Assembly: GCF_056746865.1 (NCBI RefSeq)
Contig: NZ_CM163382.1
DNA: 64,000 nt
Strand: one strand, 5' to 3'
Part shown: positions 43,175 through 60,062 of the stretch, in pieces
How the letters are laid out: the number at the start of each line of letters is the position of its first letter
Position numbering within the stretch: the stretch's first letter is position 1
Position numbers and translations under genes: made by a program
The notes under the pieces: generated by a model
Told to the model about the DNA's origin: nothing
The model's database searches: none
The model's input: the letters and a program-made list of their open reading frames with translations, nothing else

Positions 43175-44143
43175 TCAAACCATCCATTTCTTCATTTTTT
43201 TTTTGAACCAAGAACCAGTAGGAATAGGTTCAACTGCTGATAACTCAGTCAACTTCACACTTAATCGTTCCATTTCAGCTTTTACTTGTCCTGAGAATGC
43301 GGCAGCGAGAAGGCACTCTTCATCATTACGATCATGTGCCTTGAAATAATCTTTATGCTTCACTCGATTAGCAGTAGCAGCACTACCACGCAGATGCTTG
43401 CCCAACAAGAATTCCTCAAGTGATTTAACTGCATAGTGATTTACCCTGACACCGCTCCAAATCACTTCAGCACTAACTCCTTTACCATGCCTCGGGTGCA
43501 GAATCAAATCACGACCTAACACATCAATATATCGACCATAACGCAAATCAGCATAATGCGGATTATGAAAGCGGTTAACTCGTTCTGGTTTGACCACACT
43601 TTTGAAGTTATGATGAACGTTAAAGGGTTGCGGGGCACGATAGGTAAAACGTTCAATAACCAACCCCTCTTCAGCAAACAGTTCACCACTAGAACCAAAA
43701 TTTGCCCAATTCAATGCAATAGCGCTGACACTCTCATCCTGAAACTTTTCAGAAAAAAAATCTGACAATTTGGTATCCGATTCAAGTGGCAATAAAAATT
43801 CATCAGCATCTATAAATGCAAGCAGGTCTATGTCTCTGGGACAGCTACGTAAAATATGTTCATATGCAGGTAATTGTGGCTTTTGATTCACCAAAATCGG
43901 TTGATCGAACATCTTCACAATACCTAAGCGAGCGAGGGACAATAGCAACTCTCGACTACCATCACGACTACCATTATCTGCAATAATAAACCCATCAACA
44001 CCTAATACTCGATGGTAAGCAATCCATTCAAGTAAACTTGAATACTCATCCTTGATAATAGCGGCTATATAGAGTTTCAAATTATCATCCAGCAAAAATG
44101 TATCAATGCCGATACTATCGGCATTGATACTCAATTTTATCAT
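43175..44143 (-). CDS. putative glycosyltransferase (GT-A-like), paralog of the N-terminal domain of 47216..48445
   Basis: 322 aa; …AAIIKDEYSSLLEWIAYHRVLGVDGFIIADNGSRDGS…AFIDADEFLLP… parallels …AILKNEYPFIVEWIAYHMALGINDIYIADNISSDGS…AFIDADEFISP…. Confidence 0.5.
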   Translation of the reverse strand: MIKLSINADSIGIDTFLLDDNLKLYIAAIIKDEYSSLLEWIAYHRVLGVDGFIIADNGSRDGSRELLLSLARLGIVKMFDQPILVNQKPQLPAYEHILRSCPRDIDLLAFIDADEFLLPLESDTKLSDFFSEKFQDESVSAIALNWANFGSSGELFAEEGLVIERFTYRAPQPFNVHHNFKSVVKPERVNRFHNPHYADLRYGRYIDVLGRDLILHPRHGKGVSAEVIWSGVRVNHYAVKSLEEFLLGKHLRGSAATANRVKHKDYFKAHDRNDEECLLAAAFSGQVKAEMERLSVKLTELSAVEPIPTGSWFKKKMKKWMV

Positions 44144-44586
44144 CAGGCAGGAGAAAAAAATAACCCGTCCAACCAGGTGATCACCCCATCTGATTCCAGC
44201 CCAATAATTATTTTGGTAGAAAATGGAATACTGATATCAAATCCGCACCGAAGTTTTTGATGTTTTTCAGGTGGTTGTTTTAGTATAGCTGAAATAACAT
44301 CAGGCCGCTTTGTATTGAAAGGAAAACTGTATGTCATATGATCAATTTTAACAGCAACATGGGAATCTGCTTCCCCTTCAGCCACTAACCACCCCCGAAG
44401 TACAATCCGGCCATTGACGATCTTTAGTGGTTGTTGTTCTGATGGCGAATCAATATTCCAATATAATTGACCGCCAGACTTGACGAGTGGCGATTTTGTG
44501 AGGGTATAAATAACAGCCATACGATTCCTTCTATTTGAAATATTGCTCAAATAACTCAGACTATCTCCAGATTGCCTTTCAAGCAA
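44143..44586 (-). CDS. small protein carrying the recurring ~100-aa region-2 module
   Basis: 147-aa ORF (start may be the internal MAVIYTL…); shares the G-W…RPDV…CGF pattern with the C-terminus of 47216..48445 and the N-terminus of 45929..47209. Confidence 0.4.
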   Translation of the reverse strand: MLERQSGDSLSYLSNISNRRNRMAVIYTLTKSPLVKSGGQLYWNIDSPSEQQPLKIVNGRIVLRGWLVAEGEADSHVAVKIDHMTYSFPFNTKRPDVISAILKQPPEKHQKLRCGFDISIPFSTKIIIGLESDGVITWLDGLFFSPA

Positions 44587-45928: not shown

Positions 45929-47209
45929 TTATGAGGGTGCAGATTCAGTATTATATAATTTACTCATTTTTTCATGATAAAATAAAAGCGAAGGGCAAGA
46001 ATTATACTCAAAATTATTAATCTTTTTCTTGTATATTTTTCTAACAATTTCAGAAGTAAAACAGAAATTGTTTTTAGGTGGCTTCACAATAAATCTAGAA
46101 GCGACCTGAATAATTATTTTTGATGGCTTTTCATGAGCCACCACATCAAGATCCACACTCGCACCAGAAAATACATGGATTACTCTTTTATATTTATTTA
46201 CAAAATATGGAAGCATATTTATAGAATAAGAATCACCAAAAAAAACCACGACACTATCATCTATTTTGCGATTATTTTCAAATACTCTCACCCATCCTCT
46301 ATTATTAACCCCGTTATCATAAACAATATAATTATCAATACCAGAGAAATCAGCCTTCAATATATCCTGCGAAATCGGAGGGGTTGTCTTAATTCCTAAA
46401 TCGCCATAACTCCTTTTAATGTAAAAAGGGAAAATAGAATTATCGAGGACCGTGTTGTTTTTATTTAAGATATTATCTATATATTTAGCCACCTGCAATG
46501 CAGCAAAATCAGACCAGTGCGTATCAACTTTAGAATATGAGCTATCACCGATATCTCTTAATATATCTAAAGGATAAACTATATCAGTACAAATGGAGAG
46601 TAACTGTTCAACTGGTGTCTCTGGCGATTTTTTAAACGGATAGTATGATGACAATACATTCTCTTTGGCTGGAGCCAAACAAAAAACATATTCAATCCGT
46701 TGATCATTCATATATTTCCGAATAAAATCTAGATAGTTCTTCCAAACAGAAATATCATCATTTGTAATTTTTTTAATTCCAATAAACTGCTCTTTACTCT
46801 GATTGGTATCATGATCCAAGAATAAATACCCATTGTGTCCAAAAAGCACTTTTTGAGGAGGAGTTATATCTACTCTCGCTATTACATAATCAACATTATT
46901 AATAGTTGTTCCAATACTAAACGACTCCAAACTAGTAATAGCATAACTAAAACCACACATAGTATCACTAACATTTCCATTGAAATGTCTTACTACGTCT
47001 AATCTGGGTGTATTATAGTCAAGAATTAATTTCTCTCCATTCTTAACTATATATATATTATTCTGACAACCTTTATAGAGTAGCCATCCCGATAAATGAA
47101 TCGCAGAGCAATTTGACTTAAAATAACTACATGTCCGAGGACTATCAATTGAAAACTTGAGCCCGGTAATATCTGGTCTTATAACAGATAGTTTGATATC
47201 ATATTTCAT
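45929..47209 (-). CDS. hypothetical protein with recurring N-terminal module and possible SGNH/GDSL-type esterase or O-acyltransferase region
   Basis: 426 aa, very AT-rich; …VVVFFGDSYSINM… resembles a GDS(L) block. Confidence 0.4.
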   Translation of the reverse strand: MKYDIKLSVIRPDITGLKFSIDSPRTCSYFKSNCSAIHLSGWLLYKGCQNNIYIVKNGEKLILDYNTPRLDVVRHFNGNVSDTMCGFSYAITSLESFSIGTTINNVDYVIARVDITPPQKVLFGHNGYLFLDHDTNQSKEQFIGIKKITNDDISVWKNYLDFIRKYMNDQRIEYVFCLAPAKENVLSSYYPFKKSPETPVEQLLSICTDIVYPLDILRDIGDSSYSKVDTHWSDFAALQVAKYIDNILNKNNTVLDNSIFPFYIKRSYGDLGIKTTPPISQDILKADFSGIDNYIVYDNGVNNRGWVRVFENNRKIDDSVVVFFGDSYSINMLPYFVNKYKRVIHVFSGASVDLDVVAHEKPSKIIIQVASRFIVKPPKNNFCFTSEIVRKIYKKKINNFEYNSCPSLLFYHEKMSKLYNTESAPS

Positions 47210-47215
47210 TAAATT

Positions 47216-48445
47216 TTAAACCAATTTTGAAACTAATTCTTCATTGAGTGGAAATTCTAAACTAACTAATCCAGCCTGATTTAAAGTATATATCTGAACG
47301 CTTGAGATAAGTTGTGTAGGAAGCGACAACGAACATATAAACCCGCACCCAATTCCATTACCAATCCCAGCTTTTTCTACATCAGGCCGATCATAAAATG
47401 ATAGTGAGTCTGGGCGTATTAAAAAAGAGTTATTTATAACCATTACAATACTACTACATGGTTTTTTATCATTATCTACTGCCCAACCTTTTAGAACTAT
47501 AGCACGTCCATCTTTTTTAATTGTATCAATAAATCCAACCCCCATACTTTTAGTAGTCTTATAAAGTGGTTCACTTCTGCTTTCTATGAGCGGCTGATAT
47601 CCACAATCAAGCAATTTCTCATTAATGGTTGCGATTTGACATTTTACTTTTCTCAGAAACCATAATGGAATATGTTGCTCAATATTATTCAAATCATGAT
47701 TTTTAAAAAATTGCAGATTTCTACCGAGACTATTTTTTAGTGTTGTAGCTCTACCTCGAGCGACCTTTTTATTCAAGAATTCAGCCTTTGACTTAATTAC
47801 ATAATGATTAAGTCTGATAACTGACCAGTCAATCACCTCACTTATTCCATCATAACTATGATGTTCTTCTCCACTTGGCATAACAAATTTCTTATCTGAA
47901 TTAATAATAAAAGCATGGGGTGTTGGTCCTGCTTTGATAACATCAGAAACACGAACTATTGACTTATAATGCCTATTAACAGGATGCAGATCAGCAGCTC
48001 TCTTAACGAATCGTTCTATAACAAGACCGTCATCAGGTAAAATTGAATGAGATGAGCCATATACAGCCCAGTTGAGTGATATTGCACCAATCGCCTGATC
48101 ATTTAATAGCGGCATCAGTTTGTTTAAACCATCTTCATAGTCATTTGGTGAAATAAATTCATCTGCATCAATAAATGCAACCCATCTATCTTTATCAAGC
48201 ATTGACAATATTTTATTGTACGCCCCCAATTGTGGGGGAATACCATCTTGTGTCGGATAGTCAATCCTTTTGATAATATTCGCTTTATCTAGAAAATATA
48301 AAAGCTCACTACTTCCATCACTACTAATATTGTCGGCAATATATATATCATTAATGCCAAGAGCCATATGGTAAGCAATCCACTCAACAATGAATGGGTA
48401 TTCATTTTTTAAAATTGCACCTATTGAAAGCATCGCTGTTATCAC
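47216..48445 (-). CDS. putative glycosyltransferase (GT-A-like) with C-terminal recurring module
   Basis: 409 aa; N-terminal domain paralogous to 43175..44143; C-terminal …IVLKGWAV…RPDV…CGF…. Confidence 0.5.
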   Translation of the reverse strand: MITAMLSIGAILKNEYPFIVEWIAYHMALGINDIYIADNISSDGSSELLYFLDKANIIKRIDYPTQDGIPPQLGAYNKILSMLDKDRWVAFIDADEFISPNDYEDGLNKLMPLLNDQAIGAISLNWAVYGSSHSILPDDGLVIERFVKRAADLHPVNRHYKSIVRVSDVIKAGPTPHAFIINSDKKFVMPSGEEHHSYDGISEVIDWSVIRLNHYVIKSKAEFLNKKVARGRATTLKNSLGRNLQFFKNHDLNNIEQHIPLWFLRKVKCQIATINEKLLDCGYQPLIESRSEPLYKTTKSMGVGFIDTIKKDGRAIVLKGWAVDNDKKPCSSIVMVINNSFLIRPDSLSFYDRPDVEKAGIGNGIGCGFICSLSLPTQLISSVQIYTLNQAGLVSLEFPLNEELVSKLV

Positions 48446-48456
48446 TCTACTTAAAA

Positions 48457-50874
48457 TTAAATGGAGAAGTCTTCTCTATCTTTAGATAGGTTTGGACTGT
48501 AGAAGGGATCGAGTTCGAGATGTTTACCCCATTTGCTTTTCATAAAGTTCACTTCCCTGGCAAATCTGGCTATTTTCTCCGGGGAATCTTCGGCACCTCG
48601 ACTAATTGATTCATAGTGGTAAAGCTCGGCATAAGGCGTCCAGAGATTACGGTACCCCGCTTCGCGTACTTTCAGACAGAAGTCCACATCATTAAAAGCA
48701 ACATGCAAATTCTCTTCATCCAACCCGGCAACTTCCTCATAAATATTTTTGCGAATAAGCAGGCAAGCAGCCGTGACGGCCGAGAGAGTTTGTGTCAACA
48801 ACAAACGGCTGAAATAACCCGGATGATGGCGAGGGTACTGTTTATGAGAGTGTCCCGCTACACCACCAATACCGAGAATAACTCCGCCATGTTGTAAAGT
48901 ATCATTACTGTAATAGAGCTTGGCCCCGACACAACCAATCTCTGGTCGCATGCAGTGACTCACCATCTCGGTCAGCCAATCCGGGTTGATTACCTCGACA
49001 TCATTATTGACCAAGCCGATAATGGCCCCCTTGGCGTGACGAACGCCAAAGTTGTTGATGGCCGAGTAGTTAAAGGGGTGGTCATAGCGCAATACTCTGA
49101 CCCGGCTGTCTTCCTGCTGGATCTGGGCAAAGAAATCGAGAGTCTCCTGCTCCACGCTGCCATTATCGAGAATCAGGATCTCGAAATGGGTATAGGTACT
49201 GCGATCGATGATGCTACGCACCGCAGTTTCGGTTAGAGCACGACGATCCCGAGTAGGAATAAGCAAACTAACCAGTGGGGCTGGTTCTGAAATAGGGTAA
49301 CGTACCCGATAGGTGTTGGGAACCAACCCCGCCTCAACCGTAACCTCAGGTTGCTGCTTAGAAAAATAGTCGCGTAGCGCTTTGATGCCAGCCTCCGTGG
49401 TGTAGCTCTTCTCGCCAGAAGCCAAAGCTGTAGAGCCCTCAATGGTACGCCAGTGGTAAAGCACACGGGGAATGTGAACTATCTGCTCTGCAGCTACATG
49501 AGGCAGACAACGCAGCAGCAGATCCTGATCCTGACTTCCTTCTACTCCCAAACGGAATCCCCCAATCTGTTGCAGCAGAGAGCGACGATAGACCCCGAGA
49601 TGCGAGACATAGTTTTGCGAAAAGAATAAATCTGGATTCCAATCGCTCTTGAAATGAGGATCAAAACGCTCACCGCGGGCATTAATTTTATCTTCGTCAC
49701 TGTAAAGGATCTGGGTATGAGGCTGCTCACAAATAGCCTGAGCCATAAATAGCATAGCATGCTCTGGCAACACATCATCATGATCCAACAGAGCTACGAA
49801 ATCCCCTTTTGCAATTTCGAGAGCACTGTTGGAAGCAGCCGAAATATGACCATTGTGCTTTCGGTAGACAACTTTGATTCGGCTATCCTTGGCCTCGTAT
49901 TCGCGCAGTACGCGTTGCACATGTTCTTTTGGCGAACGATCATCGGCAATACAGAGTTCCCAATGGGGATAGCTTTGAGCCAGGACAGAATCCAGACAGG
50001 CACGCAAGTAGATCTCCGCTGGATTATAAACAGGAATCACAATAGATATAACTGGAGGGTGAGTCATACTGGCAAGCATCAGACTCACCTCTTTGTTGCC
50101 AGGCAACGAAGGTAATTCCACCGTTTCTATCCATTCCTCATAACCGACAGAAAACGGGGTAACGCTGAACGTTTCGTTATAGAATGCCTGCAGGCGCTCT
50201 ATTGACATATCGCCATTGTCCATCAATATGGATTTTTTGATTTTTTCTAGCGGCATGTCACGATAGCTTTGGTGTTCTTTTTGAATGCGAGCCAATAGTG
50301 CAGACTCAACTACTTTCACATCAACAGCTGCTATTTCAAACTGATTAATTGCAAATGTTGCTGCCTGTTCTAATGGATCAAATCGTAATGCAACAAGAGG
50401 CGATTCCAGATAGAACAAACGACTGACGCTGACCGCTCGTTTATATGGCAACGTTACTGTTTCAAACTCATTGAACCCTTTACCTGTATCCAAATATAAC
50501 TTAGCTAATCCTTGCTTTGGTTGGCAATTAATAGAGATATTAAATTGATACCATCCCTTGCTAATATTTGAGAGCTGCTCCAAATCAATAATGAAAAATG
50601 GATCATTTCCCTCTGCAACCCAACTTTGTGAATTATCTATATCTATCGAGAGCTGATTTGTTGCCAGATAGGGCAGCACAACTGTATTTTGCATTTTACT
50701 CACTGCAGGAGAAACGTCCCATGCTTCGCATGGTTTCCTACCGAGTAACATCCCATAACGCTTAAAATGTTCTCTTGCTGACAACCCGGTCTGTTTCACA
50801 TCCAAATAGTTATGCAGATACCAATGTTCATCAAAGTGAGCTAGCAACTCGTCTTGGTGATTTTTAACCATCAC
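48457..50874 (-). CDS. two-domain family 2 glycosyltransferase
   Basis: 805 aa; two GT-A signatures (…ISIVIPVYNPAEIYLRACLDSV… and …VSLLIPTRDRRALTETAVRSI…); N-terminal FDEHWYLHNYLDV… motif shared with the C-terminus of the 909-aa protein. Confidence 0.7.
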   Translation of the reverse strand: MMVKNHQDELLAHFDEHWYLHNYLDVKQTGLSAREHFKRYGMLLGRKPCEAWDVSPAVSKMQNTVVLPYLATNQLSIDIDNSQSWVAEGNDPFFIIDLEQLSNISKGWYQFNISINCQPKQGLAKLYLDTGKGFNEFETVTLPYKRAVSVSRLFYLESPLVALRFDPLEQAATFAINQFEIAAVDVKVVESALLARIQKEHQSYRDMPLEKIKKSILMDNGDMSIERLQAFYNETFSVTPFSVGYEEWIETVELPSLPGNKEVSLMLASMTHPPVISIVIPVYNPAEIYLRACLDSVLAQSYPHWELCIADDRSPKEHVQRVLREYEAKDSRIKVVYRKHNGHISAASNSALEIAKGDFVALLDHDDVLPEHAMLFMAQAICEQPHTQILYSDEDKINARGERFDPHFKSDWNPDLFFSQNYVSHLGVYRRSLLQQIGGFRLGVEGSQDQDLLLRCLPHVAAEQIVHIPRVLYHWRTIEGSTALASGEKSYTTEAGIKALRDYFSKQQPEVTVEAGLVPNTYRVRYPISEPAPLVSLLIPTRDRRALTETAVRSIIDRSTYTHFEILILDNGSVEQETLDFFAQIQQEDSRVRVLRYDHPFNYSAINNFGVRHAKGAIIGLVNNDVEVINPDWLTEMVSHCMRPEIGCVGAKLYYSNDTLQHGGVILGIGGVAGHSHKQYPRHHPGYFSRLLLTQTLSAVTAACLLIRKNIYEEVAGLDEENLHVAFNDVDFCLKVREAGYRNLWTPYAELYHYESISRGAEDSPEKIARFAREVNFMKSKWGKHLELDPFYSPNLSKDREDFSI

Positions 50875-50876
50875 TT

Positions 50877-53606
50877 TTATTCTCCCTTATTGACAGGCAG
50901 GCAACTGCGCTGCTCAAACTTCCCATACATAATGTAATGAAGCAGCGGATTAATGCCTCCTTGGGCCACATCCGGATAGGCTTGCAAATACCAGCGAGTA
51001 TCAAACTGCTCACTAGGGCTATAACCTTTATCCGCCCCCACGCTAATAAAATGCTCAAGAGCTGAGAGCCCAGTGTCTGCAACCTCTGGGTAGCGATGTT
51101 GATACCAGAGTTCATCAAACAATCCTGAAGCGGCAATACGCTCCGCGGCACTCTCTGTAGCTGTTGTTCTGGATGGAGTCTCCTTAAATGTTCTGCCAAG
51201 AGCACGAACTGGGGCTGTAATCTTCCAAGAGACGGTTCTCTTCAAATTCTGAGCGCGTTCTTTTGCTCTATTCAATTGCCGCTCTTTTTGTTTTAACTCA
51301 CAGCTAAGCTGCTCCATATGCCGCGTCATGACTGCCAACTCCTGGAAACGCTCTGCAATATTAGCTTCCAACCTTCCGTTGAGTGTGGTTAGTTCTCTTA
51401 CCTGGTCTTGCAGTACAGACTGCTGGCTCTGCAGCAAGGTTTGTTCCCGGATTAAGGCCTCCTTCTCTTCTTTCCAGGCTTGCTGCTGAGCTCTATATGT
51501 TTCATTGGTCTGTTGTTGTTCACTTGCTGCGCTAAGGAGTGCCTGATCACGTTCTTCCAGCCAACGGGTTAAGGTTGCAATCTCGCTGTACCGCTCATTG
51601 AGCACCGATTCCAACTCATCAAGTTGATGTTGCTTTTCTTTTGCTGCTGAGAGCAATGCAGACTGGGCCTGCTGAAGCGACTCTTGCTCAGCCCTTAACT
51701 GCTGCTCTACGCCAGACAACTTGGTGGTAATCAATTGTTTTTCAATCTCTAGTTCAGTGATAATCTGCTTGTGCTCTTCTAATAGACGTGTTAGAGCTAC
51801 CGTTTCACTAAAACGCTCGGCTAATGCCAAGTCCCGTTCGCTAATCTGTTGCTGATGTGTGGTCTGTTCAACTGCCAGTTGTTGTTGTAATGCTGATAGC
51901 GCCTCTGTGAGTTGCTTATACTCTGCTTGTTGAGCAGCCATTACGTCGCTTTGTGACGCAATATTAGACTCGCGCACTGCTATTAGTTGAGTCAGTTCAT
52001 CACATTGTTTAGAAGCCGCAGCCAAAGCAAGAGTTTGCTCATCTATGCTTTGCTGCAATGTTTGTTGCACAAGTTGCCCTTCTTCCAACTGTTGCTGTAG
52101 ATTTGCACTTACCTTTTTCAGTGCATCATATTCCAAGCCTAACGTATCGTGCTGTGCTTCCAGTAATCCATAAGCATGCTGCAACTGGTTTTTAGTTTGC
52201 TGCTCACCGTCAAGCTGCTGCTGCAATGCATTAGCCTGCTGTTGCAACAAGTTCACCATATTGTCTCGCTCGGCCAGTGTACGAACCTGTGTATCCTGGA
52301 CATGTAGCGCTTGTTCCAACTGAAGCTGTAATTCGGTAATTTGCCGCGAATGTTCGCTCAATGCTCTGTTACTCTTGCTGAGCGCGAGAGTAAGGTGAGA
52401 TGCACGCTGTGTTTCTTCACTCAATTGTAACGTCAGGGTATTGACCTGTTGCTCCAGTTGATGGCGAGCTTGCTCCTGGCTCGTGATGCGACTCTGTTGC
52501 TGCTCTAGTTGATGCAGAGCTGTATGCAACTCATCGTTGGCTTGTATTCGCTCCTGCGACCATACACTCAAGTTTGTTTGGGCCTCATTGAGCTGTTCTT
52601 GCAATAATGCCACCTCAGATGTCAGCGAATTGATATGTTGCTGGGCAAAAGATAGCTCATCAGATTGCACTTGAGCATGTGCAAGCTGCTTTTCCATTTC
52701 TAATATGCTGTTATGTTGTGCAGTAATGCGCTCGGCAAGACGCCCTCTTTCCAATGCCTGCTGTTCTACCAATAGCTGCCGTTCAGCCTGAATGTCATCT
52801 TGTTGTGTAGACAACTGACGTTTTAACAGGGAATTCTCCCAACTCTCGCTACAAGATTTCCCCAAACGACAAAAGATGTCTTGGACTTGTTTGGTTACAC
52901 GAGCATTTTCTGAGATTTTATACAAATTATTAAGTTCTGGAGATTGTTCACACCCCACACCAACTATCCCTAGTCCATGCCCATGAGCGAACTCAAAGTG
53001 TGGATATTGTCGTTTTAATTCATCCAAAAGCTGAAATACGCCAAAACCACGTTCCCTAACATTGGTATCATGCATAATGACCACAGCCCTTTCAGAAAGC
53101 TTTGGCAACCAGCTTTCAAAATCATGGCGTACCGCTTCGAACGTATGCAAACCATCAATATGAAGCAGATCAATGCTACCTTGTGAAAAATGCTCTAACG
53201 CTTGGTCAAATGTACTGCGAATGAGAGTAGAAAAACCTGAATAGTGCTGTTGATTATATTCTGATACTTGCCTGTAAACTTCTTCGCCATACAGCCCCGC
53301 ATGTTCATCTCCCCCCCAGGTATCAACGGCAAAGCAGCATGTTTCTAAATCTAGTTTAGAGACTGCCTGGCAGAATGAGAAATAAGAACTTCCATAATGA
53401 GTTCCCAGCTCAACAATATTTCTTGGCCGCAGTGTGTCAACTAACCAGAAAGCAAAAGGAATATGTTCTAGCCAAGCAGATTGTGCAAGATATGTAGGAC
53501 GCCAAAAAAGAGATGATTTGAAAATGAAATTCAATTCCCCGCCAATATCAGTGATGGGATATAACTCACGATTTTCTACTAACTGACTAATTTTTTGACT
53601 ATCCAT
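50877..53606 (-). CDS. methyltransferase-domain protein with ~550-aa coiled coil and C-terminal repeat motif
   Basis: 909 aa; N-terminal …IVELGTHYGSSYFSF…IDLLHIDGLHTFEAVRHDFESWLPKLSERAVVIMHDT… resembles class I SAM-dependent (Methyltransf_24-like) methyltransferases; residues ~250-800 are Q/E/L-rich heptad-like sequence; C-terminus has two FD..WY…YPDV… repeats. Confidence 0.6.
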   Translation of the reverse strand: MDSQKISQLVENRELYPITDIGGELNFIFKSSLFWRPTYLAQSAWLEHIPFAFWLVDTLRPRNIVELGTHYGSSYFSFCQAVSKLDLETCCFAVDTWGGDEHAGLYGEEVYRQVSEYNQQHYSGFSTLIRSTFDQALEHFSQGSIDLLHIDGLHTFEAVRHDFESWLPKLSERAVVIMHDTNVRERGFGVFQLLDELKRQYPHFEFAHGHGLGIVGVGCEQSPELNNLYKISENARVTKQVQDIFCRLGKSCSESWENSLLKRQLSTQQDDIQAERQLLVEQQALERGRLAERITAQHNSILEMEKQLAHAQVQSDELSFAQQHINSLTSEVALLQEQLNEAQTNLSVWSQERIQANDELHTALHQLEQQQSRITSQEQARHQLEQQVNTLTLQLSEETQRASHLTLALSKSNRALSEHSRQITELQLQLEQALHVQDTQVRTLAERDNMVNLLQQQANALQQQLDGEQQTKNQLQHAYGLLEAQHDTLGLEYDALKKVSANLQQQLEEGQLVQQTLQQSIDEQTLALAAASKQCDELTQLIAVRESNIASQSDVMAAQQAEYKQLTEALSALQQQLAVEQTTHQQQISERDLALAERFSETVALTRLLEEHKQIITELEIEKQLITTKLSGVEQQLRAEQESLQQAQSALLSAAKEKQHQLDELESVLNERYSEIATLTRWLEERDQALLSAASEQQQTNETYRAQQQAWKEEKEALIREQTLLQSQQSVLQDQVRELTTLNGRLEANIAERFQELAVMTRHMEQLSCELKQKERQLNRAKERAQNLKRTVSWKITAPVRALGRTFKETPSRTTATESAAERIAASGLFDELWYQHRYPEVADTGLSALEHFISVGADKGYSPSEQFDTRWYLQAYPDVAQGGINPLLHYIMYGKFEQRSCLPVNKGE

Positions 53607-53746: not shown

Positions 53747-54949
53747 TCAATCCTGGTGCTCACGCAAAGTTGCCAGCCCCATAATAATAAGACCATAGAA
53801 CAAGCAAAGTAATACACCCACAGTCGCAAGATTATAGAATCGCCGTGGATATTCGGCATCTTCCGCTAAAGTTGGTTGGGTAATAACCAATAGGTGCTTA
53901 AGTTTACGATATGCCTCAACCCGCGTCTGCTCTAAGCTGATAAGGCCAGTTTTGTAGAGATCCGCTGCCAAGGTTGCCTGCGTTTGCACATCCATGTAAC
54001 CGGCGGTGATTTCATTCATGGCATCGTTATCTTGACCAGTCAGCTTAGCACGCTCCTGTTCAAGCTGCTTGGTTAGGGCGTCAACTCGGCTCTGTAATGA
54101 GACTACGGCCGGTGCGGTTTCCTTCATATAGCTGCGCAGTTGTTTTAGCTCCGCCTGTTGACGCACCAGCTCTCCTTCAATCTGGCTGACCACTCCTAAG
54201 CGTGCGCTGCTGGTAGATTCAGGGCTGAGAAGTTGGTGGCTATTCTGAAATGCTAATACTTTAGCTTTTTCATCCTGTAAGCGTTGATATGCTCTATTTA
54301 CTTCTTTTTCAACAAAGGCCAATTGTTCGAGCGCAACCTGATGACCTAATTTGTTAATAAAACGCTCCGATTCTTTGAGCATTAACTCAACAACTCGCTG
54401 ACCGTATTGGGGATCAAATGTCTGCAACTCAACGGTAAGTACTCCTGATAATTCATCAAGATGTAACGTCAAATGTTTGCGGTAATAATCAAGAAAATCC
54501 TCCCTACTGACTCCCTTATGCAACCGCGAGAAATAATCTGCACTATCACTCTGGAAATGTGCTTTAAGTGCAAGTTCTTTGTCCAACTTGGCCAGCATAT
54601 CCCATGACTTCATATAATCCTGAACGAGTAATATATCCTGATGATTACTACCACCGATCCCTAACATTGATAACGCATCAGGCAACATTTTAACTTGATC
54701 GGCTTGTTTAATCATTAATTCAGCCCGGCTCACATAACGATCGGAAGCAATGAAGCCAAAATAGAGCACTGCGATAGAAAAGCAGATAACTACCCAAAGA
54801 AAACTGCCTAGCTGTAAACTTTTCTTCCACGAGCGGTGTACAATTTGATATCCTCTCGAATCAATCAAAAATAGTTTTGGATTATTGCTCAGTTTTCTTA
54901 ACTTTCGCGCAAGGCGAGATATTGAGGATGAAGAATTCGGAGATGTCAT
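53747..54949 (-). CDS. kpsE: capsule export inner-membrane protein KpsE
   Basis: ORF 53747..55006; start at MTSPN (54949) avoids overlap with kpsT; N-terminal TM segment then long periplasmic helical region and C-terminal hydrophobic segment. Confidence 0.7.
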   Translation of the reverse strand: MTSPNSSSSISRLARKLRKLSNNPKLFLIDSRGYQIVHRSWKKSLQLGSFLWVVICFSIAVLYFGFIASDRYVSRAELMIKQADQVKMLPDALSMLGIGGSNHQDILLVQDYMKSWDMLAKLDKELALKAHFQSDSADYFSRLHKGVSREDFLDYYRKHLTLHLDELSGVLTVELQTFDPQYGQRVVELMLKESERFINKLGHQVALEQLAFVEKEVNRAYQRLQDEKAKVLAFQNSHQLLSPESTSSARLGVVSQIEGELVRQQAELKQLRSYMKETAPAVVSLQSRVDALTKQLEQERAKLTGQDNDAMNEITAGYMDVQTQATLAADLYKTGLISLEQTRVEAYRKLKHLLVITQPTLAEDAEYPRRFYNLATVGVLLCLFYGLIIMGLATLREHQD

Positions 54950-54962
54950 AATCAGTTGCTGC

Positions 54963-55613
54963 TCAAAGTGACTGGTAAATTTTGATGGCATCATCAATAT
55001 TATCAAAAACTTCTAATTTACCATCACGTAACAAGATGCCCATATCGCATTGTTGTCGTAGATTTTTCATATCATGTGAAACCATAATCAAACTAGCTGT
55101 TTCTCGCTTTTTGTTAAATACATCAATACATTTTTGTTTAAAACGTGCATCACCTACTGAGGTAATTTCATCGGTAAGATATATATCAAAATCAAAAGCC
55201 ATACTAACAGCAAAAGAAAATTTTGATTTCATGCCGCTAGAGTATGTTTTAATAGGCAACTCATAATGTTGTCCAATTTCAGAAAACTCTTTAACCCACT
55301 CTTCTACGGTGCTTGTATCGCGTACACCATGAATGCGGCAAACAAATCGCGTGTTTTCACGACCAGTCATACTACCTTGAAATCCCCCACCTAGTGCTAG
55401 AGGCCAAGATACTCGGCAGAGACGAGTTACTTTCCCCCTGTTAGGCGTATCCATCCCTCCTAACAAACGTAACAAAGTAGATTTTCCTGCTCCATTGATA
55501 CCTAGAATACCTATATTACGGTCCCTTGGTAGCTCAATATTTACATTCCTCAGGACATAATTTCGTCCAAATTTAGTCGGATAATATTTTGATACATTAT
55601 CAAGAATAATCAT
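54963..55613 (-). CDS. kpsT: capsule ABC transporter ATP-binding protein KpsT
   Basis: 216 aa; Walker A GINGAGKST, ABC signature YSSGMKSKF, Walker B IYLTDE. Confidence 0.9.
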   Translation of the reverse strand: MIILDNVSKYYPTKFGRNYVLRNVNIELPRDRNIGILGINGAGKSTLLRLLGGMDTPNRGKVTRLCRVSWPLALGGGFQGSMTGRENTRFVCRIHGVRDTSTVEEWVKEFSEIGQHYELPIKTYSSGMKSKFSFAVSMAFDFDIYLTDEITSVGDARFKQKCIDVFNKKRETASLIMVSHDMKNLRQQCDMGILLRDGKLEVFDNIDDAIKIYQSL

Positions 55614-55624
55614 TTTTCTTAACG

Positions 55625-56425
55625 CTAACTAGCAATCAATTGGCGATGCCGTAATCGGTAACAACTCATAGCAAAAGTGAGCAATAATAAGGTGACAACC
55701 GACAGATACGCCCAACTTACATCAGGACTACGATAACCAGATATCCATGCCCTTCGGATTAGTTCTACAGCATGCACAAGTGGATTCCATAAAAACCAAT
55801 GCTGATATTGAGGGGGAATAGTAGCAAGAGGAAACATAACACAAGAGATAAACATCAAAGGCATCATTAACAAGCTAAGAAATTTATCTGCCTCTTTCGC
55901 TAAGTTACAAATAACACAAAATACAATACCAAGAGAAAAAGAAAACAGCATCAGAAGAGAATAACCAAGGATCACTTGCAATGGATCCGCAGGTATTGCA
56001 TCAAAGCCAAACCACAATAATCCTAGTACTAGGATGATACCGACAATCATGCCCACCATTGTTTCTAGCATAAAACGTGCTATAAAAGTTGCAAAAGGAG
56101 TCACTTGTCTATAACAAAAAAGTCCCATATTAGCATTGACAGCAGATTTCAACTGAGTCACAACTTTATTGAAAAACATGAAAGGTAAATAACCAGCAGT
56201 AATAAAAACCTGGGCTGGGACACCACCAAAGCCACTTTGGCTTCTCATCCCAAATACTACACTGAACAGGCTAATCATTAATAATGGGTCAAGTAATGCC
56301 CAAGCATAACCTAGTCGGTAATTACCAAATCTTGTTTTTAGCTCACGAATTAATAAGCCAAATACTACATCACGTAATACTTGCAAAGAAGTGCGTGGAG
56401 TTTGACTAATAATGGGTTTGTCCAT
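55625..56425 (-). CDS. kpsM: capsule ABC transporter permease KpsM
   Basis: 266 aa; ABC-2 type permease with six predicted TM segments; immediately upstream of kpsT. Confidence 0.9.
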   Translation of the reverse strand: MDKPIISQTPRTSLQVLRDVVFGLLIRELKTRFGNYRLGYAWALLDPLLMISLFSVVFGMRSQSGFGGVPAQVFITAGYLPFMFFNKVVTQLKSAVNANMGLFCYRQVTPFATFIARFMLETMVGMIVGIILVLGLLWFGFDAIPADPLQVILGYSLLMLFSFSLGIVFCVICNLAKEADKFLSLLMMPLMFISCVMFPLATIPPQYQHWFLWNPLVHAVELIRRAWISGYRSPDVSWAYLSVVTLLLLTFAMSCYRLRHRQLIAS

Positions 56426-56491
56426 TAATACTTACCCAAATAATCGGCTCATTATAGCAACGAGCCTCCGATTAAAATTTAAAACACTCAA

Positions 56492-58237
56492 TCATTTAAT
56501 AGCAACGTTAGCAGCTACAGCGATTTGATAAATAATTTGTGTGATATCTTTAAATGATTGCATGGTTTTGCTATCAACCTGAGGTAGAACCAATATCTGA
56601 TCCCCCGGTTGTACTTTACCTTGCCCTTTAAATTCTACAAGACCATTTGCATGTACAATAGCAATTCGCTTGTCGTTAGCTCGCTCAGTAAAACCTCCGG
56701 CCCATGCAACATAATCATCCAAATTAGCATCGGCATTATATACTACTGCTTGTGGCATCAACACTTCACCACCCACTTGAATAAGATCAGTCTTATTTGG
56801 AATAACTATTTGATCGCCTTGTTCTAATTGGATATTGGCAATAACACCTTTATCTGCAACTACTACTTTACCAAGCGGTTGAACTTTACGAGCCTTTTCA
56901 ACAAACTGCATCACTAACTCTGCTTCTTTAGCACGTATATTCGCCTCACCATCAGATCGCGCGGGTGTGGTAAATACACTACGTTCCAAGCGGTTTAGAG
57001 ATTCATCCAGCATCTCTTTTTGTCTTGCAGCCACACTCTTTCGTATCAGATAAATTGATTGATAATCCGCAAGCTCTGGGTCAATAGGGATATAGTTCAA
57101 TAAATCATGCAATTTAGTTTGCTTACGAACCGTGAAATATGACGGTCCCATATAACTGCCTGATACTTGTATATCATATACTTGTGCATGCATGTCATCA
57201 TTAAAAAGTACTTTGTCACCGTCTTTAAGTTGAAGACGTGTAAAATCTTTATACGGCAAGTAGACGGAAAACGGGCCGCTTTCCCTGTCGCCAATCACAC
57301 CGACATGACTGACTTTTGCGAGAGGAAGTGCATAATTCACCAATTCAGAGCCTAATGCATTGCGCTGGGTAAGCTCAAATCGGAATGGGTTTCGAACCTT
57401 TCCCGCAACATTGATCATTGGACCTTGTTGCTCAACTAAAATCACATCTTGATCTTTTAATGCCAGCTTCGGGAGTTTCCCATACCGTATGAAATCATAA
57501 AGATCAATTTGCTGTATTACTCTATTTTGTCGTAACACCTTAATTTTTCGATAACTTCCACGGTCAGAATCTATTCCACCGGCACGTTTTAAAAAATACA
57601 ATATACTATCAGAAGATTGTCCTGCATACTGCCCAGGACGAATTACAGGCCCCGTAACGAATACACTTACAGGGGTTGCAGTCAAAAGATTTACGTAAGT
57701 ATTTACATTATTGGTAAATACATCACCGATCTTACTTGCCACCAACTGATTAACTTGGCTTGCAGGAACATTTTTTACATTTATTGGACCTACATCAGGT
57801 ATGAAAATATTTCCTTGATTATCTACCGTAACCACATTAGAGAAATTGACCGCTCCCCAAATCCAGATATTTAACTTATCCCCAGGAGCAATCAAATAAT
57901 TATCGCTTAAGCCGTCACTCCTTTCTGTTTCATAGCCTCCGGCAAATAAATTAGCACCATACGGAGGAGGTAAGCCTGCTTCAGATTGCGGCAGTAATTT
58001 TCGTACATCTGACTCTCCTGGAAGCAACATCCCATTACGATTCTGTTGTGTGAAGCTTCCTGTTGTGGAGGTTGTATTAGGCTGTCCAGTGATGTCTGCT
58101 AGCATTTTCCGAGACTCTCCTGTCGAGGCAGCAAGATCATAATCTAAATGTGAACCATTAGATTGATTTTGCTCTATTGCGGCGAATGCTGATGCAGAAA
58201 TAAGAAAGAGAAGAGTGCTAAGTTGCGAAATTTTCAT
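56492..58237 (-). CDS. kpsD: capsule polysaccharide export protein KpsD (Wza-like)
   Basis: 581 aa with signal peptide (MKISQLSTLLFLISASAFA); polysaccharide-export family regions; first recognisable kps gene of a kpsD-M-T-E block. Confidence 0.8.
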   Translation of the reverse strand: MKISQLSTLLFLISASAFAAIEQNQSNGSHLDYDLAASTGESRKMLADITGQPNTTSTTGSFTQQNRNGMLLPGESDVRKLLPQSEAGLPPPYGANLFAGGYETERSDGLSDNYLIAPGDKLNIWIWGAVNFSNVVTVDNQGNIFIPDVGPINVKNVPASQVNQLVASKIGDVFTNNVNTYVNLLTATPVSVFVTGPVIRPGQYAGQSSDSILYFLKRAGGIDSDRGSYRKIKVLRQNRVIQQIDLYDFIRYGKLPKLALKDQDVILVEQQGPMINVAGKVRNPFRFELTQRNALGSELVNYALPLAKVSHVGVIGDRESGPFSVYLPYKDFTRLQLKDGDKVLFNDDMHAQVYDIQVSGSYMGPSYFTVRKQTKLHDLLNYIPIDPELADYQSIYLIRKSVAARQKEMLDESLNRLERSVFTTPARSDGEANIRAKEAELVMQFVEKARKVQPLGKVVVADKGVIANIQLEQGDQIVIPNKTDLIQVGGEVLMPQAVVYNADANLDDYVAWAGGFTERANDKRIAIVHANGLVEFKGQGKVQPGDQILVLPQVDSKTMQSFKDITQIIYQIAVAANVAIK

Positions 58238-58635: not shown

Positions 58636-59565
58636 TTTAAAACGTTATCCAAAAGTTGATAGTATGTAAAACAATTACCTTCTATTATTGATACTCTGAC
58701 AGATATCAATAATAGCCCATAAATATAAGATATTTAAAATTATAACCACACAAATTAATCATAGATGTTGCTAGTATAAGATTGACTTTAGTCAACTGGT
58801 GTTTACATCATCTGTTTATAACTAATTACGAATATATCCTTTATCTTTTGGATATGTACTACATATGCAACACACATCCCTAAAAATATTATTTTTATGG
58901 CCCCGTATATTGCTATCTTTTTTTTATAAAATTTAATAATAACAACCATATGGAAGAGAAAATCCCTCTTATACATAAAGAGGGATCAATTAAATAAATT
59001 TGTTTTGTAATGACTCAGTAAGGCATAGACGTTTTCATAAATTCTTAAATTACTATCCCCAAAAATCTAAGTCCTGAAAAACTTTAACACTCTAATATTT
59101 TCATGAGCCGTTCAGCACACCCTCAACTTCGATAAAAAATGCTAACTAGTAAATAATTGTCGCAATAATAATAGTCGTACTTTATCAATAACAGATAAAC
59201 AAAAATAATAAAAAAGAGGGGAGATACACTTGCGATAGAATGGCGGCTTCTTGCCCCCCTTTGCCCGGTCCTGACTAGCATGGCTGGAGTCAGTGTCAGG
59301 CCACGACCATGCTCATCATGGAAGCAGCTTTTGTAGTACACTTCGCAGCTTATTTTCCTGGAACGAAATGTCTGGCATCGTGGTGCATAACATAACCCCC
59401 AATGCCCAGCAGATGCACAGAAGGTTCTAGAATCGCCCACTGATATCCCATACAAAATTTACCAAAACGTGTTCGTATTTCTCGTATAAATAATGTCTCT
59501 ATGGTGACGTTCTAGACTTCAAACCCACTTTTTGAATTTGATGATGTGCTCCTAATCTCTTCAGG

Positions 59566-59577
59566 AATGCTACCGCC
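59566..59577 (-). promoter_or_regulatory. ops-like element (GGCGGTAGCATT on the minus strand) in the kps leader; candidate RfaH recruitment site
   Basis: Reverse complement of 59566-59577 reads GGCGGTAGCATT, matching the ops core GGCGGTAG; lies about 930 bp upstream of the first ORF of the kpsD-M-T-E block. Confidence 0.4.
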
Positions 59578-60062
59578 CCTGGCTTTACAGCTACCAATAC
59601 ACTGGAGGTATACTTATCTGCAACTGGATGAACTAGATATACTTGAGCAAACATTTCATAAGCTCGACGAACAGTTTTCGTAGAAATTATTTTCCTTATT
59701 TAAAATTCACTTATTGATTATCTCTAGGAATTTTACTAATTTCCAAGTCACATAAAATACAGATCACACAAGAATTATCCTATATGCTTTAACCTATCAA
59801 TTATTACTCAATGATTCATTACAACTATTAATAATCATAATGCGTCAAAACACTTAAGCAACTTTACAGTCTGAGAAAGGTGTCGATTCACAAGGACTGC
59901 ATAGTGAAAAACGAATTCCTACAGTATTATCGAACATTCCGTGGTGGTCTGGAGGGAGATAACCCTTGCTACATCGGAACTCAGCCCGGTGAGCGGGTTT
60001 GACAGTTCCGCACTCACCTTTGGGCTAAGGTTATCAGGTGGGGTTTAAGGGGATGGCAATAC

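Follow-up and report, generated by a model that had tools for sequence, protein, structure and literature searches.

In O-antigen assembly that depends on ATP-binding cassette (ABC) transporters, a chain terminator with a coiled coil either recruits the polymerase, as in the WbdD-WbdA pair, or is fused to it, as in ORF6 of Klebsiella pneumoniae O7 and WbbB of K. pneumoniae O12 (PMC11231755). In the WbdD-WbdA systems of Escherichia coli O9a and K. pneumoniae O3, the terminating methyltransferase at the N-terminus is followed by an extended coiled coil serving as a molecular ruler, the C-terminal region of WbdD recruits the separately encoded polymerase with its multiple glycosyltransferase (GT) domains, and the whole depends on an ABC transporter (PMC11231755, PMC3482155). 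Such recruitment of polymerases by coiled-coil terminators is known in outline for a few O-antigen systems only, and how chain length is set in ABC-transporter-dependent capsules is largely open. Here we describe a repeat shared by two neighboring genes of an E. coli capsule locus, found at positions 48457-53606 of a 64,000-nucleotide stretch of contig NZ_CM163382.1 (RefSeq assembly GCF_056746865.1); this whole stretch is called the window, and all positions refer to it unless another locus is named. The genes encode a 909-amino acid (aa) methyltransferase with a coiled coil and an 805-aa protein with two GT2 modules, and the repeat, which ends the former and begins the latter, probably helps the two proteins to work as one machine. 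From the start of the first gene to the end of the second, the parts are as follows.

50877..53606, minus strand: 909-aa protein with a methyltransferase, a long coiled coil and two repeat units (open reading frame, ORF; RefSeq annotation, class I S-adenosylmethionine (SAM)-dependent methyltransferase)
52821..53606, minus strand: methyltransferase catalytic region, about aa 1-262 (Pfam Methyltransf_24 at aa 65-181, E 5e-25)
51231..52820, minus strand: coiled coil of about 530 aa, about aa 263-792 (composition heuristic at aa 253-792 and partial matches to NCBIfam SMC models at aa 272-793)
51204..51230, minus strand: SWKITAPVR motif (SW[RK]xTxPxR), aa 793-801, between coiled coil and repeats
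51012..51125, minus strand: first repeat unit of the methyltransferase protein, aa 828-865, GLFDELWYQHRYPEVADTGLSALEHFISVGADKGYSPS (hidden Markov model (HMM) independent E-value 1.9e-15; AlphaFold2 predicted local distance difference test score (pLDDT) above 93)
50898..51011, minus strand: second repeat unit of the methyltransferase protein, aa 866-903, EQFDTRWYLQAYPDVAQGGINPLLHYIMYGKFEQRSCL (HMM independent E-value 1.7e-18)
50869..50888, minus strand: gene junction, with a Shine-Dalgarno-like AAGGGAG in the last methyltransferase codons, a TAA stop and GTG and ATG starts
48457..50874, minus strand: 805-aa protein (804 aa from the ATG) with one repeat unit, an N-terminal domain and two GT2 modules (ORF; Pfam Glycos_transf_2 twice, E 3.7e-48)
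50728..50841, minus strand: repeat unit of the GT protein, aa 12-49 in the 805-aa numbering, AHFDEHWYLHNYLDVKQTGLSAREHFKRYGMLLGRKPC (HMM independent E-value 1.1e-12; AlphaFold2 pLDDT 87-90)
50080..50724, minus strand: N-terminal domain of the GT protein, about 215 aa, aa 51-265 (no Pfam or NCBIfam match)
48460..50079, minus strand: two GT2 catalytic modules, about aa 266-520 and 521-805 (Pfam, NCBIfam and solved-structure matches)

An earlier note on this DNA had called a methyltransferase in the first protein and two GT2 domains in the second, and the Pfam matches bear out both calls. Judged by its predicted domains, the 909-aa protein has the layout of the WbdD-type chain terminators, that is, methyltransferase, coiled coil and repeats, and it is a candidate chain terminator or molecular ruler for the capsule. 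A passage of PMC13171606 notes the coiled coil of these group 3 genes but does not mention the repeat. The likeness to WbdD does not extend to the sequence, however: the methyltransferase domains share no similarity, and a comparison with solved structures, the N-terminal region of WbdD included, returned no chain at E ≤ 0.01. Furthermore, WbdD has a kinase and a C-terminal membrane-binding amphipathic helix, and acts on undecaprenyl-linked O-antigen together with a Wzt that carries a carbohydrate-binding module, whereas the product here belongs to a kps capsule system whose KpsT has 216 aa, the size of a bare nucleotide-binding domain. Because of the unrelated methyltransferase sequence, the KpsT without a cap-reading module and the capsular rather than O-antigenic setting, the pair would work like WbdD-WbdA but is not regarded as containing a WbdD homolog. 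The SW[RK]xTxPxR motif, located about 35-55 aa ahead of the first repeat, is found in 10 of the 150 top repeat proteins; a hydrophobic stretch, which might be a membrane-association element, follows it in several of them.

The 805-aa protein is a putative capsule polymerase. Its Pfam Glycos_transf_2 and Glyco_tranf_2_3 stretches cover aa 277-437 and 533-755, and its closest solved relative is the K4 chondroitin synthase (2z86/2z87, E 1.2e-24), with heparosan synthase B also matching; two GT2 modules together with the K4 chondroitin polymerase as best solved relative would fit a polymerase for a disaccharide repeat. Like the dual-GT2 capsule polymerases KfoC of E. coli K4 and heparosan synthase of Pasteurella, it holds both modules in one polypeptide. 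The similarity is confined to the GT2 modules (query aa 261-477), and the KfoC and heparosan synthase structures have no counterpart to the N-terminal repeat unit or to the aa 51-265 domain, for which weak matches to segments of two repeat proteins (P0079 and P0131) are found. At the junction of the genes the sequence reads AAG GGA GAA TAA AA GTG ATG, so that the GTG lies 2 nt and the ATG 5 nt past the stop codon; an arrangement of this kind indicates that the methyltransferase and GT genes are translationally coupled.

The earlier note had also described a motif, FD..WY...YPDV, occurring twice in tandem at the end of the 909-aa protein and once at the start of the 805-aa protein. This holds. 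A loose regular expression run over all six frames of the window gave three matches only, at exactly these places, and a scan of the window with a profile HMM built from 116 diverse units recovered the same three units and no others. The extent given for the motif was too short, though, since the true unit has 38 residues: the offset from the first to the second methyltransferase unit is exactly 38, equal to the period of the repeat family. The GT unit is 50% identical in protein sequence to the first methyltransferase unit, and the two methyltransferase units are 35% identical to each other. At the DNA level the three copies share just 46-54% identity, with a near-random 32-39% at third codon positions, and a recent duplication or gene conversion of units is thereby ruled out. 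The copies are therefore old, and their alikeness has been maintained at the protein level.

The motif is one unit of a widespread and undescribed 38-residue tandem repeat with three short helices. A search of 1.84 billion representative proteins with a five-sequence profile found at least 23,327 protein clusters (at 50% identity) matching at E ≤ 1e-3 and 2,609 matching at E ≤ 1e-30, with up to 24 tandem units per protein. The spacing of successive units is exactly 38 residues in 1,027 cases. From 1,535 units, the consensus is PLFDtaWYLeqYPDVAaaGiNPLvHYLxxGaaEGRdPh, or in generalized form PLFDxxWYLxxYPDVAxxGxNPLxHYLxxGxxEGRxP, and the most conserved positions include F3 (98%), Y8 (99%), H25 (90%) and G30 (90%). 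AlphaFold2 folds the methyltransferase pair with pLDDT 97.6 and a predicted template modeling score (pTM) of 0.84, giving each unit three short helices. No family of Pfam-A 2025 or NCBIfam 2026 scored above its gathering score on the units of the E. coli proteins, of many-repeat proteins or of a consensus array; the nearest curated model, DUF7669, reached 15-20 bits against a cut-off of 23. Membership in the TPR, Sel1 and Arm families was rejected, as matches on repeat proteins, Arm and TPR_2 among them, stayed sub-threshold or sporadic. The repeat profile had zero matches among the solved chains of the Protein Data Bank, no solved fold is similar to the repeat in sequence or structure, no known carbohydrate-binding fold resembles it, and a literature search on motif strings returned irrelevant matches only. 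The family is nevertheless comparable to generic helical repeats such as TPR, Sel1 and Armadillo/HEAT, which are typically binding scaffolds: in both, short helical units are strung together in varying numbers and turn up in proteins of many kinds and compartments, while the unit here, unlike theirs, has 38 aa with three short helices. The partner enzymes include GT1/4, GT2, GT61, RgpF, WsaF, pyruvyltransferases and sulfotransferases, and some proteins, for example P0138 and P0118, hold their units as discrete pairs with linkers between. Secreted-type carriers occur as well; examples lie at L069 8438-10357, L064 9275-10399 and L061 8798-10714 (Rhizobium, Methylobacterium, Sphingobium) and comprise an M10 serralysin-like protease with RTX repeats, RTX-only proteins and a CAP-domain protein.

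The position of the unit is kept strictly. The earlier note had allowed that the motif might turn out to be a common low-complexity pattern placed at random in homologs; instead, the motif is not of low complexity, and the unit lies at about aa 10-50 in every one of the 113 full-length homologs of the 805-aa protein; 112 of them have exactly one, and P0360 (1,260 aa) has three. The homologs, which share 66-100% identity, belong to Escherichia, Aeromonas, Leclercia, Citrobacter, Kluyvera and Enterobacter. Likewise, in each of the nine E. coli locus variants examined, which were taken from genome records, the methyltransferase protein ends with two units and the enzyme encoded next begins with one or two. 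When two E. coli lineages are compared, the catalytic domain of the methyltransferase is 76-77% identical and its repeat units 76-89%, whereas the coiled coil is only 38-40% identical, with 53-73 gaps and a varying length; in the GT, the repeat unit is 76-82% and the aa 51-265 domain 58-62% identical. In conservation, the methyltransferase units equal or exceed the catalytic domain, and the GT unit falls somewhat below its GT2 modules. Residues specific to this subfamily (EHFKRYG, LLGRKPC) are kept at positions that are variable in the wider family.

Two further observations concern the units themselves. In all four E. coli protein types, the final repeat unit closes with a cysteine at unit position 36-38 (QRSC, GRKPC, GRQCR, GRVCK), encoded at 50898-50906 and 50728-50733 in the window and with equivalents in L002 and L094; just 4.8% of the 1,535 units in the wider family have a cysteine there. 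In P0003, from a public read-archive assembly, the methyltransferase C-terminus is frameshifted and enters, after YPDVAQ, a 113-aa alternative-frame ORF (50864-51205 in the window, minus strand), by which the second unit is destroyed; the frameshift is either natural or an artifact of assembly.

The order of modules in other bacteria shows where the repeat belongs. Among the 150 best repeat proteins, 47 have a coiled coil ahead of the repeats and 1 has it behind them; a GT2 module with homology to the 805-aa protein follows the repeats in 65 and precedes them in 1, and 21 have both the coiled coil upstream and the GT2 downstream. In two cases, P0053 and P0102, methyltransferase, coiled coil, repeats and two GT2 modules are fused in this order in a single chain, and P0133, P0054 and L015 unite a methyltransferase domain with repeats and GT2 modules, a coiled coil being either not detected or not looked for in them. 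Other proteins correspond to one half of the E. coli pair: P0010, P0081, P0118 and P0138 run from methyltransferase over coiled coil to terminal repeats like the 909-aa protein, and P0083, P0085, P0089 and P0093 consist of repeats and two GT2 modules like the 805-aa protein. Because one-polypeptide relatives have the repeats at the seam, the E. coli pair looks like such a protein split inside its repeat array. By the gene-fusion or "Rosetta stone" argument, fusion elsewhere suggests that both proteins act together, and the repeat would help them to act as one because it is located at the place that joins ruler and polymerase in the fused proteins of other bacteria. ORF6 of K. pneumoniae O7 and WbbB of O12 are also similar, having by published module order a terminating enzyme, a coiled coil and two GT modules, which are GT2 in O7 ORF6 (PMC11231755). 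Their order matches that of P0053 and P0102, and of P0133 and L015 with the coiled coil there undetected or unchecked, yet they are covalent fusions and the E. coli pair is split. Split junctions from C-terminus to N-terminus like the E. coli one recur in unrelated genomes: in L027 a methyltransferase of a different family with four units is followed by three units on a WbsX-GT2-GT4-GT1 protein, L090 and L089 have similar junctions, and in L014 a protein with sulfotransferase, coiled coil and eight units lies between two multi-GT proteins with N-terminal arrays.

The methyltransferase repeats also go with the enzyme that follows them. In the loci of ATCC 43886 and of the mcr-10.1 plasmid, the downstream enzyme is an unrelated WbsX/RgpF-type protein with two N-terminal units, and this permits a two-by-two comparison of lineage and partner. 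The catalytic domain of the methyltransferase tracks lineage, with 93-96% identity within and 75-77% between lineages. The repeat pair tracks the partner: across lineages it is 80-83% identical when the partner is the 805-aa GT type and 67% when it is the WbsX type, whereas pairs with different partner types within one lineage are only 54-58% identical. On these comparisons, the methyltransferase repeat pair is inherited with the downstream enzyme. Hong et al. found that substitutions cluster in the last 263 bp of the methyltransferase gene (PMC10433991), and these 263 bp are the repeat region. Two hypothetical proteins of about 510 aa in the E. coli loci (L007 8021-9550 and L006 20766-22307) carry a single unit near the C-terminus (aa 447-483 and 454-490) and have no Pfam match; one is inside region 2, and the other is just outside the kps cluster beside insertion sequence (IS) elements.

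These observations are best accommodated by a model in which the methyltransferase and GT proteins dock directly through their repeat units; we give this reading a probability of roughly 0.45. In glycan-assembly enzymes, the array stands between an upstream coiled-coil ruler with its terminating enzyme and the downstream polymerizing GT modules. In the E. coli group 3 version this single-polypeptide design is split in the array, two units staying with the methyltransferase protein and one or two with the next enzyme. By packing on each other, or on the partner, the units of both proteins would hold the polymerase at the base of the ruler without a covalent link. A fused terminator-polymerase would thereby be rebuilt, in which only chains that span the coiled coil could reach the distal methyltransferase and get a methyl cap, and the role of the repeat would parallel that of the WbdD C-terminal region for WbdA. 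In working principle only, this resembles the docking domains of polyketide synthases and non-ribosomal peptide synthetases (PKS/NRPS) and the dockerin-cohesin pair, where the C-terminus of one protein meets the N-terminus of the next and is exchanged with the partner; there is no homology, and here both partners carry the same kind of unit instead of two complementary folds. The net charges, -5 for the methyltransferase pair and +2 for the GT unit (family mean -1.5), are opposite, which may be a small hint for docking. As units of the family are net acidic, a role as membrane-binding tag seems unlikely.

Several points weigh against direct docking. In 79 loci from named genomes, with 10 kb taken on each side, there is one carrier in 61, two in 11 and three in 7, and with the RTX-type excluded the carrier is solitary in 47 of 57. 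Even for the coiled-coil/repeat proteins with usable flanks, three of four have no repeat-carrying neighbor, a fifth being on a short contig. Since most carriers are solitary, pairing of repeats between proteins cannot be the general role of the family. Furthermore, among 69 carriers scanned, 19 have RTX repeats (calcium-binding, of type I secreted proteins), nine an M10 protease, three a subtilase (S8) and one a CAP domain, the repeats being usually C-terminal, and Ig-like proteins are also in the census; the scan used the consensus pair as query and its sample is biased towards alphaproteobacteria, so that these secreted-carrier counts are biased too. That the repeat ends secreted RTX, M10, S8 and CAP proteins indicates a more generic function. 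An AlphaFold2 chimera joining aa 828-909 of the methyltransferase protein to aa 1-50 of the GT folded in its parts (pLDDT 93-96 and 87-90), but with a pTM of 0.58 against 0.84 for the pair alone and a junction pLDDT of 63-79 the units were not rigidly placed. As a single chain with an unpaired alignment and no coordinates, it is a weak test of docking; the alignment was block-wise, which deepens each block without coupling them, and MAFFT alignments were discarded because the GT unit was matched in them to the second unit of natural pairs, which risked a false coupling. The joint inheritance of repeat pair and partner could reflect mere adjacency on the DNA, and it equally fits binding of the polymer product. 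Finally, we know of no report of methylation capping of group 3 capsule chains. The suggestion of the earlier note that the motif mediates co-assembly of the two enzymes is therefore carried only in part: the fusions elsewhere, the translational coupling and the inheritance of the methyltransferase repeats with the downstream enzyme lend it indirect support, while the motif as the contact surface itself is weakened as a general rule by the solitary loci, the RTX proteases and the chimera. None of the analyses made here ties the motif to the membrane or to the export machinery.

The solitary and the secreted carriers would be explained if each module independently bound the same third component, such as the nascent polysaccharide, its lipid-linked acceptor or one of the Kps proteins for export or assembly. 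This would bring the carriers together without any repeat-to-repeat contact, and a module on an RTX protein would anchor it to surface polysaccharide. The nascent polymer is the most attractive third component because it would also explain the secreted carriers and the link with partner type, the methyltransferase repeats tracking the partner enzyme and hence the type of polymer. The occurrence of the repeat in both cytoplasmic glycan enzymes and secreted proteins, the many classes of partner enzymes and the extra single-unit carriers of L007 and L006 speak for such a common ligand, and the conserved W/Y7, Y8, H25 and Y26 could stack on sugars. These aromatics can as easily be the hydrophobic core of a small helical unit, however, and the consensus is near-identical across phyla with very different glycans. 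Moreover, the acidic mean charge is unfavorable for binding acidic capsules or anionic membranes, and none of the known carbohydrate-binding folds matches; taken together, we consider a common ligand, the main rival of direct docking, possible but somewhat unlikely.

It is improbable that the units are merely a scar of gene fission or a passive spacer, left over from a split in a linker array that gave rigid length or flexibility and bound nothing specifically. Arrays of 2 to 24 units in variable copy number between coiled coil and GT modules, and the lack of confident docking in the chimera, are what a spacer would give, but a spacer should not be conserved at least like catalytic domains and far above the coiled coil, nor should a single GT unit be retained in every homolog. 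The protein pattern kept despite near-random third codon positions points to purifying selection, and the conserved subfamily-specific residues also disagree with a passive role. Self-association, in which repeats would homo-oligomerize each carrier by bundling the C-terminal ends of the coiled coil or dimerizing the GT, with no link between the proteins, is the least probable of these explanations. It would suit the solitary majority and the discrete unit pairs with linkers in P0138 and P0118, and the lone GT unit, which is like the first methyltransferase unit, could pair with a second copy of itself. It leaves unexplained, though, both the strict order of coiled coil, repeats and GT modules and the exchange of the methyltransferase pair along with the downstream enzyme, and oligomerization is already supplied by the coiled coil.

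The genomic setting is that of a capsule locus. The window belongs to the E. coli chromosome. The region is 99.8% identical to that of strain PF9285, and matches to it are present in 53 of 5,426 complete genomes. According to ORFs, family matches and the RefSeq annotation of PF9285, the genes are ordered kpsD-M-T-E, region 2, then rmlBDAC, kpsC and kpsS, adjoining gspM-L-K. The published group 3 kps order is kpsD-M-T-E, a serotype-specific region 2 and kpsC-S, with the gsp/serA region adjacent (PMC10433991), and by this gene order the locus is the E. coli group 3 kps capsule cluster. The export genes of region 1 lie directly upstream of the methyltransferase gene, which is the first region-2 gene after kpsE:

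53747..58237, minus strand: kpsE, kpsT, kpsM and kpsD (NCBIfam BexC/CtrB/KpsE, E 3e-149; polysaccharide-export matches; RefSeq)

An O4:H5 strain is among the locus matches (99.1%), and this match together with the rml and ugd genes is compatible with a K54/K96 type (PMC10433991, PMC13171606). Complete group 3 kps loci with a methyltransferase/partner pair are also found on plasmids, in L094 (pGN25-mcr10.1), L005-L007 and L095, and one plasmid kps locus is about 6 kb from the colistin-resistance gene mcr-10.1. In NZ_CP173446.1 (E. coli strain 98232), an IS26 lies inside the region corresponding to 48457-53606, so that the match is in two pieces; the insertion may amount to a natural knockout. 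Another small domain recurs in the region-2 proteins encoded at 44143-44586, 45929-47209 and 47216-48445, all on the minus strand: a 147-aa ORF (aa 41-129) resembles the N-terminus of a 426-aa AlgX-like protein (aa 17-93, E 6e-4) and also the C-terminus of a 409-aa GT (aa 314-382, E 1e-2), and all three have an 'L.GW ... RPDV' pattern with no Pfam family matches. Between the small ORF after kpsD and gspM, a low-GC stretch (about 36%) without a large ORF occupies 58636-60062, and at this spot related strains have IS elements and a frameshifted remnant of an ABC permease.

In its widest form, the proposal is that the unit would be a new alpha-helical repeat fold serving as a portable, partner-matched coupling module that tethers polymerases to rulers, with long arrays extending the ruler, that on RTX proteins it would bind finished polysaccharide or other carriers at the cell surface, and that E. 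coli group 3 capsules would be under termination-based chain-length control. All of this together is unlikely. The repeat is a concrete, mutable element at the seam of terminator and polymerase in a clinically relevant, K54/K96-like group 3 E. coli capsule. It offers a testable way into the recruitment of polymerases and the control of chain length in these capsules, and two natural, partner-matched versions of it exist, the 805-aa GT type and the WbsX type. It also represents a very abundant family, with at least 23,000 clusters, that has neither a Pfam or NCBIfam entry nor a structural relative. If the reading as a coupling module is true, these capsules would have a termination-based control of chain length of a kind undescribed for capsules.

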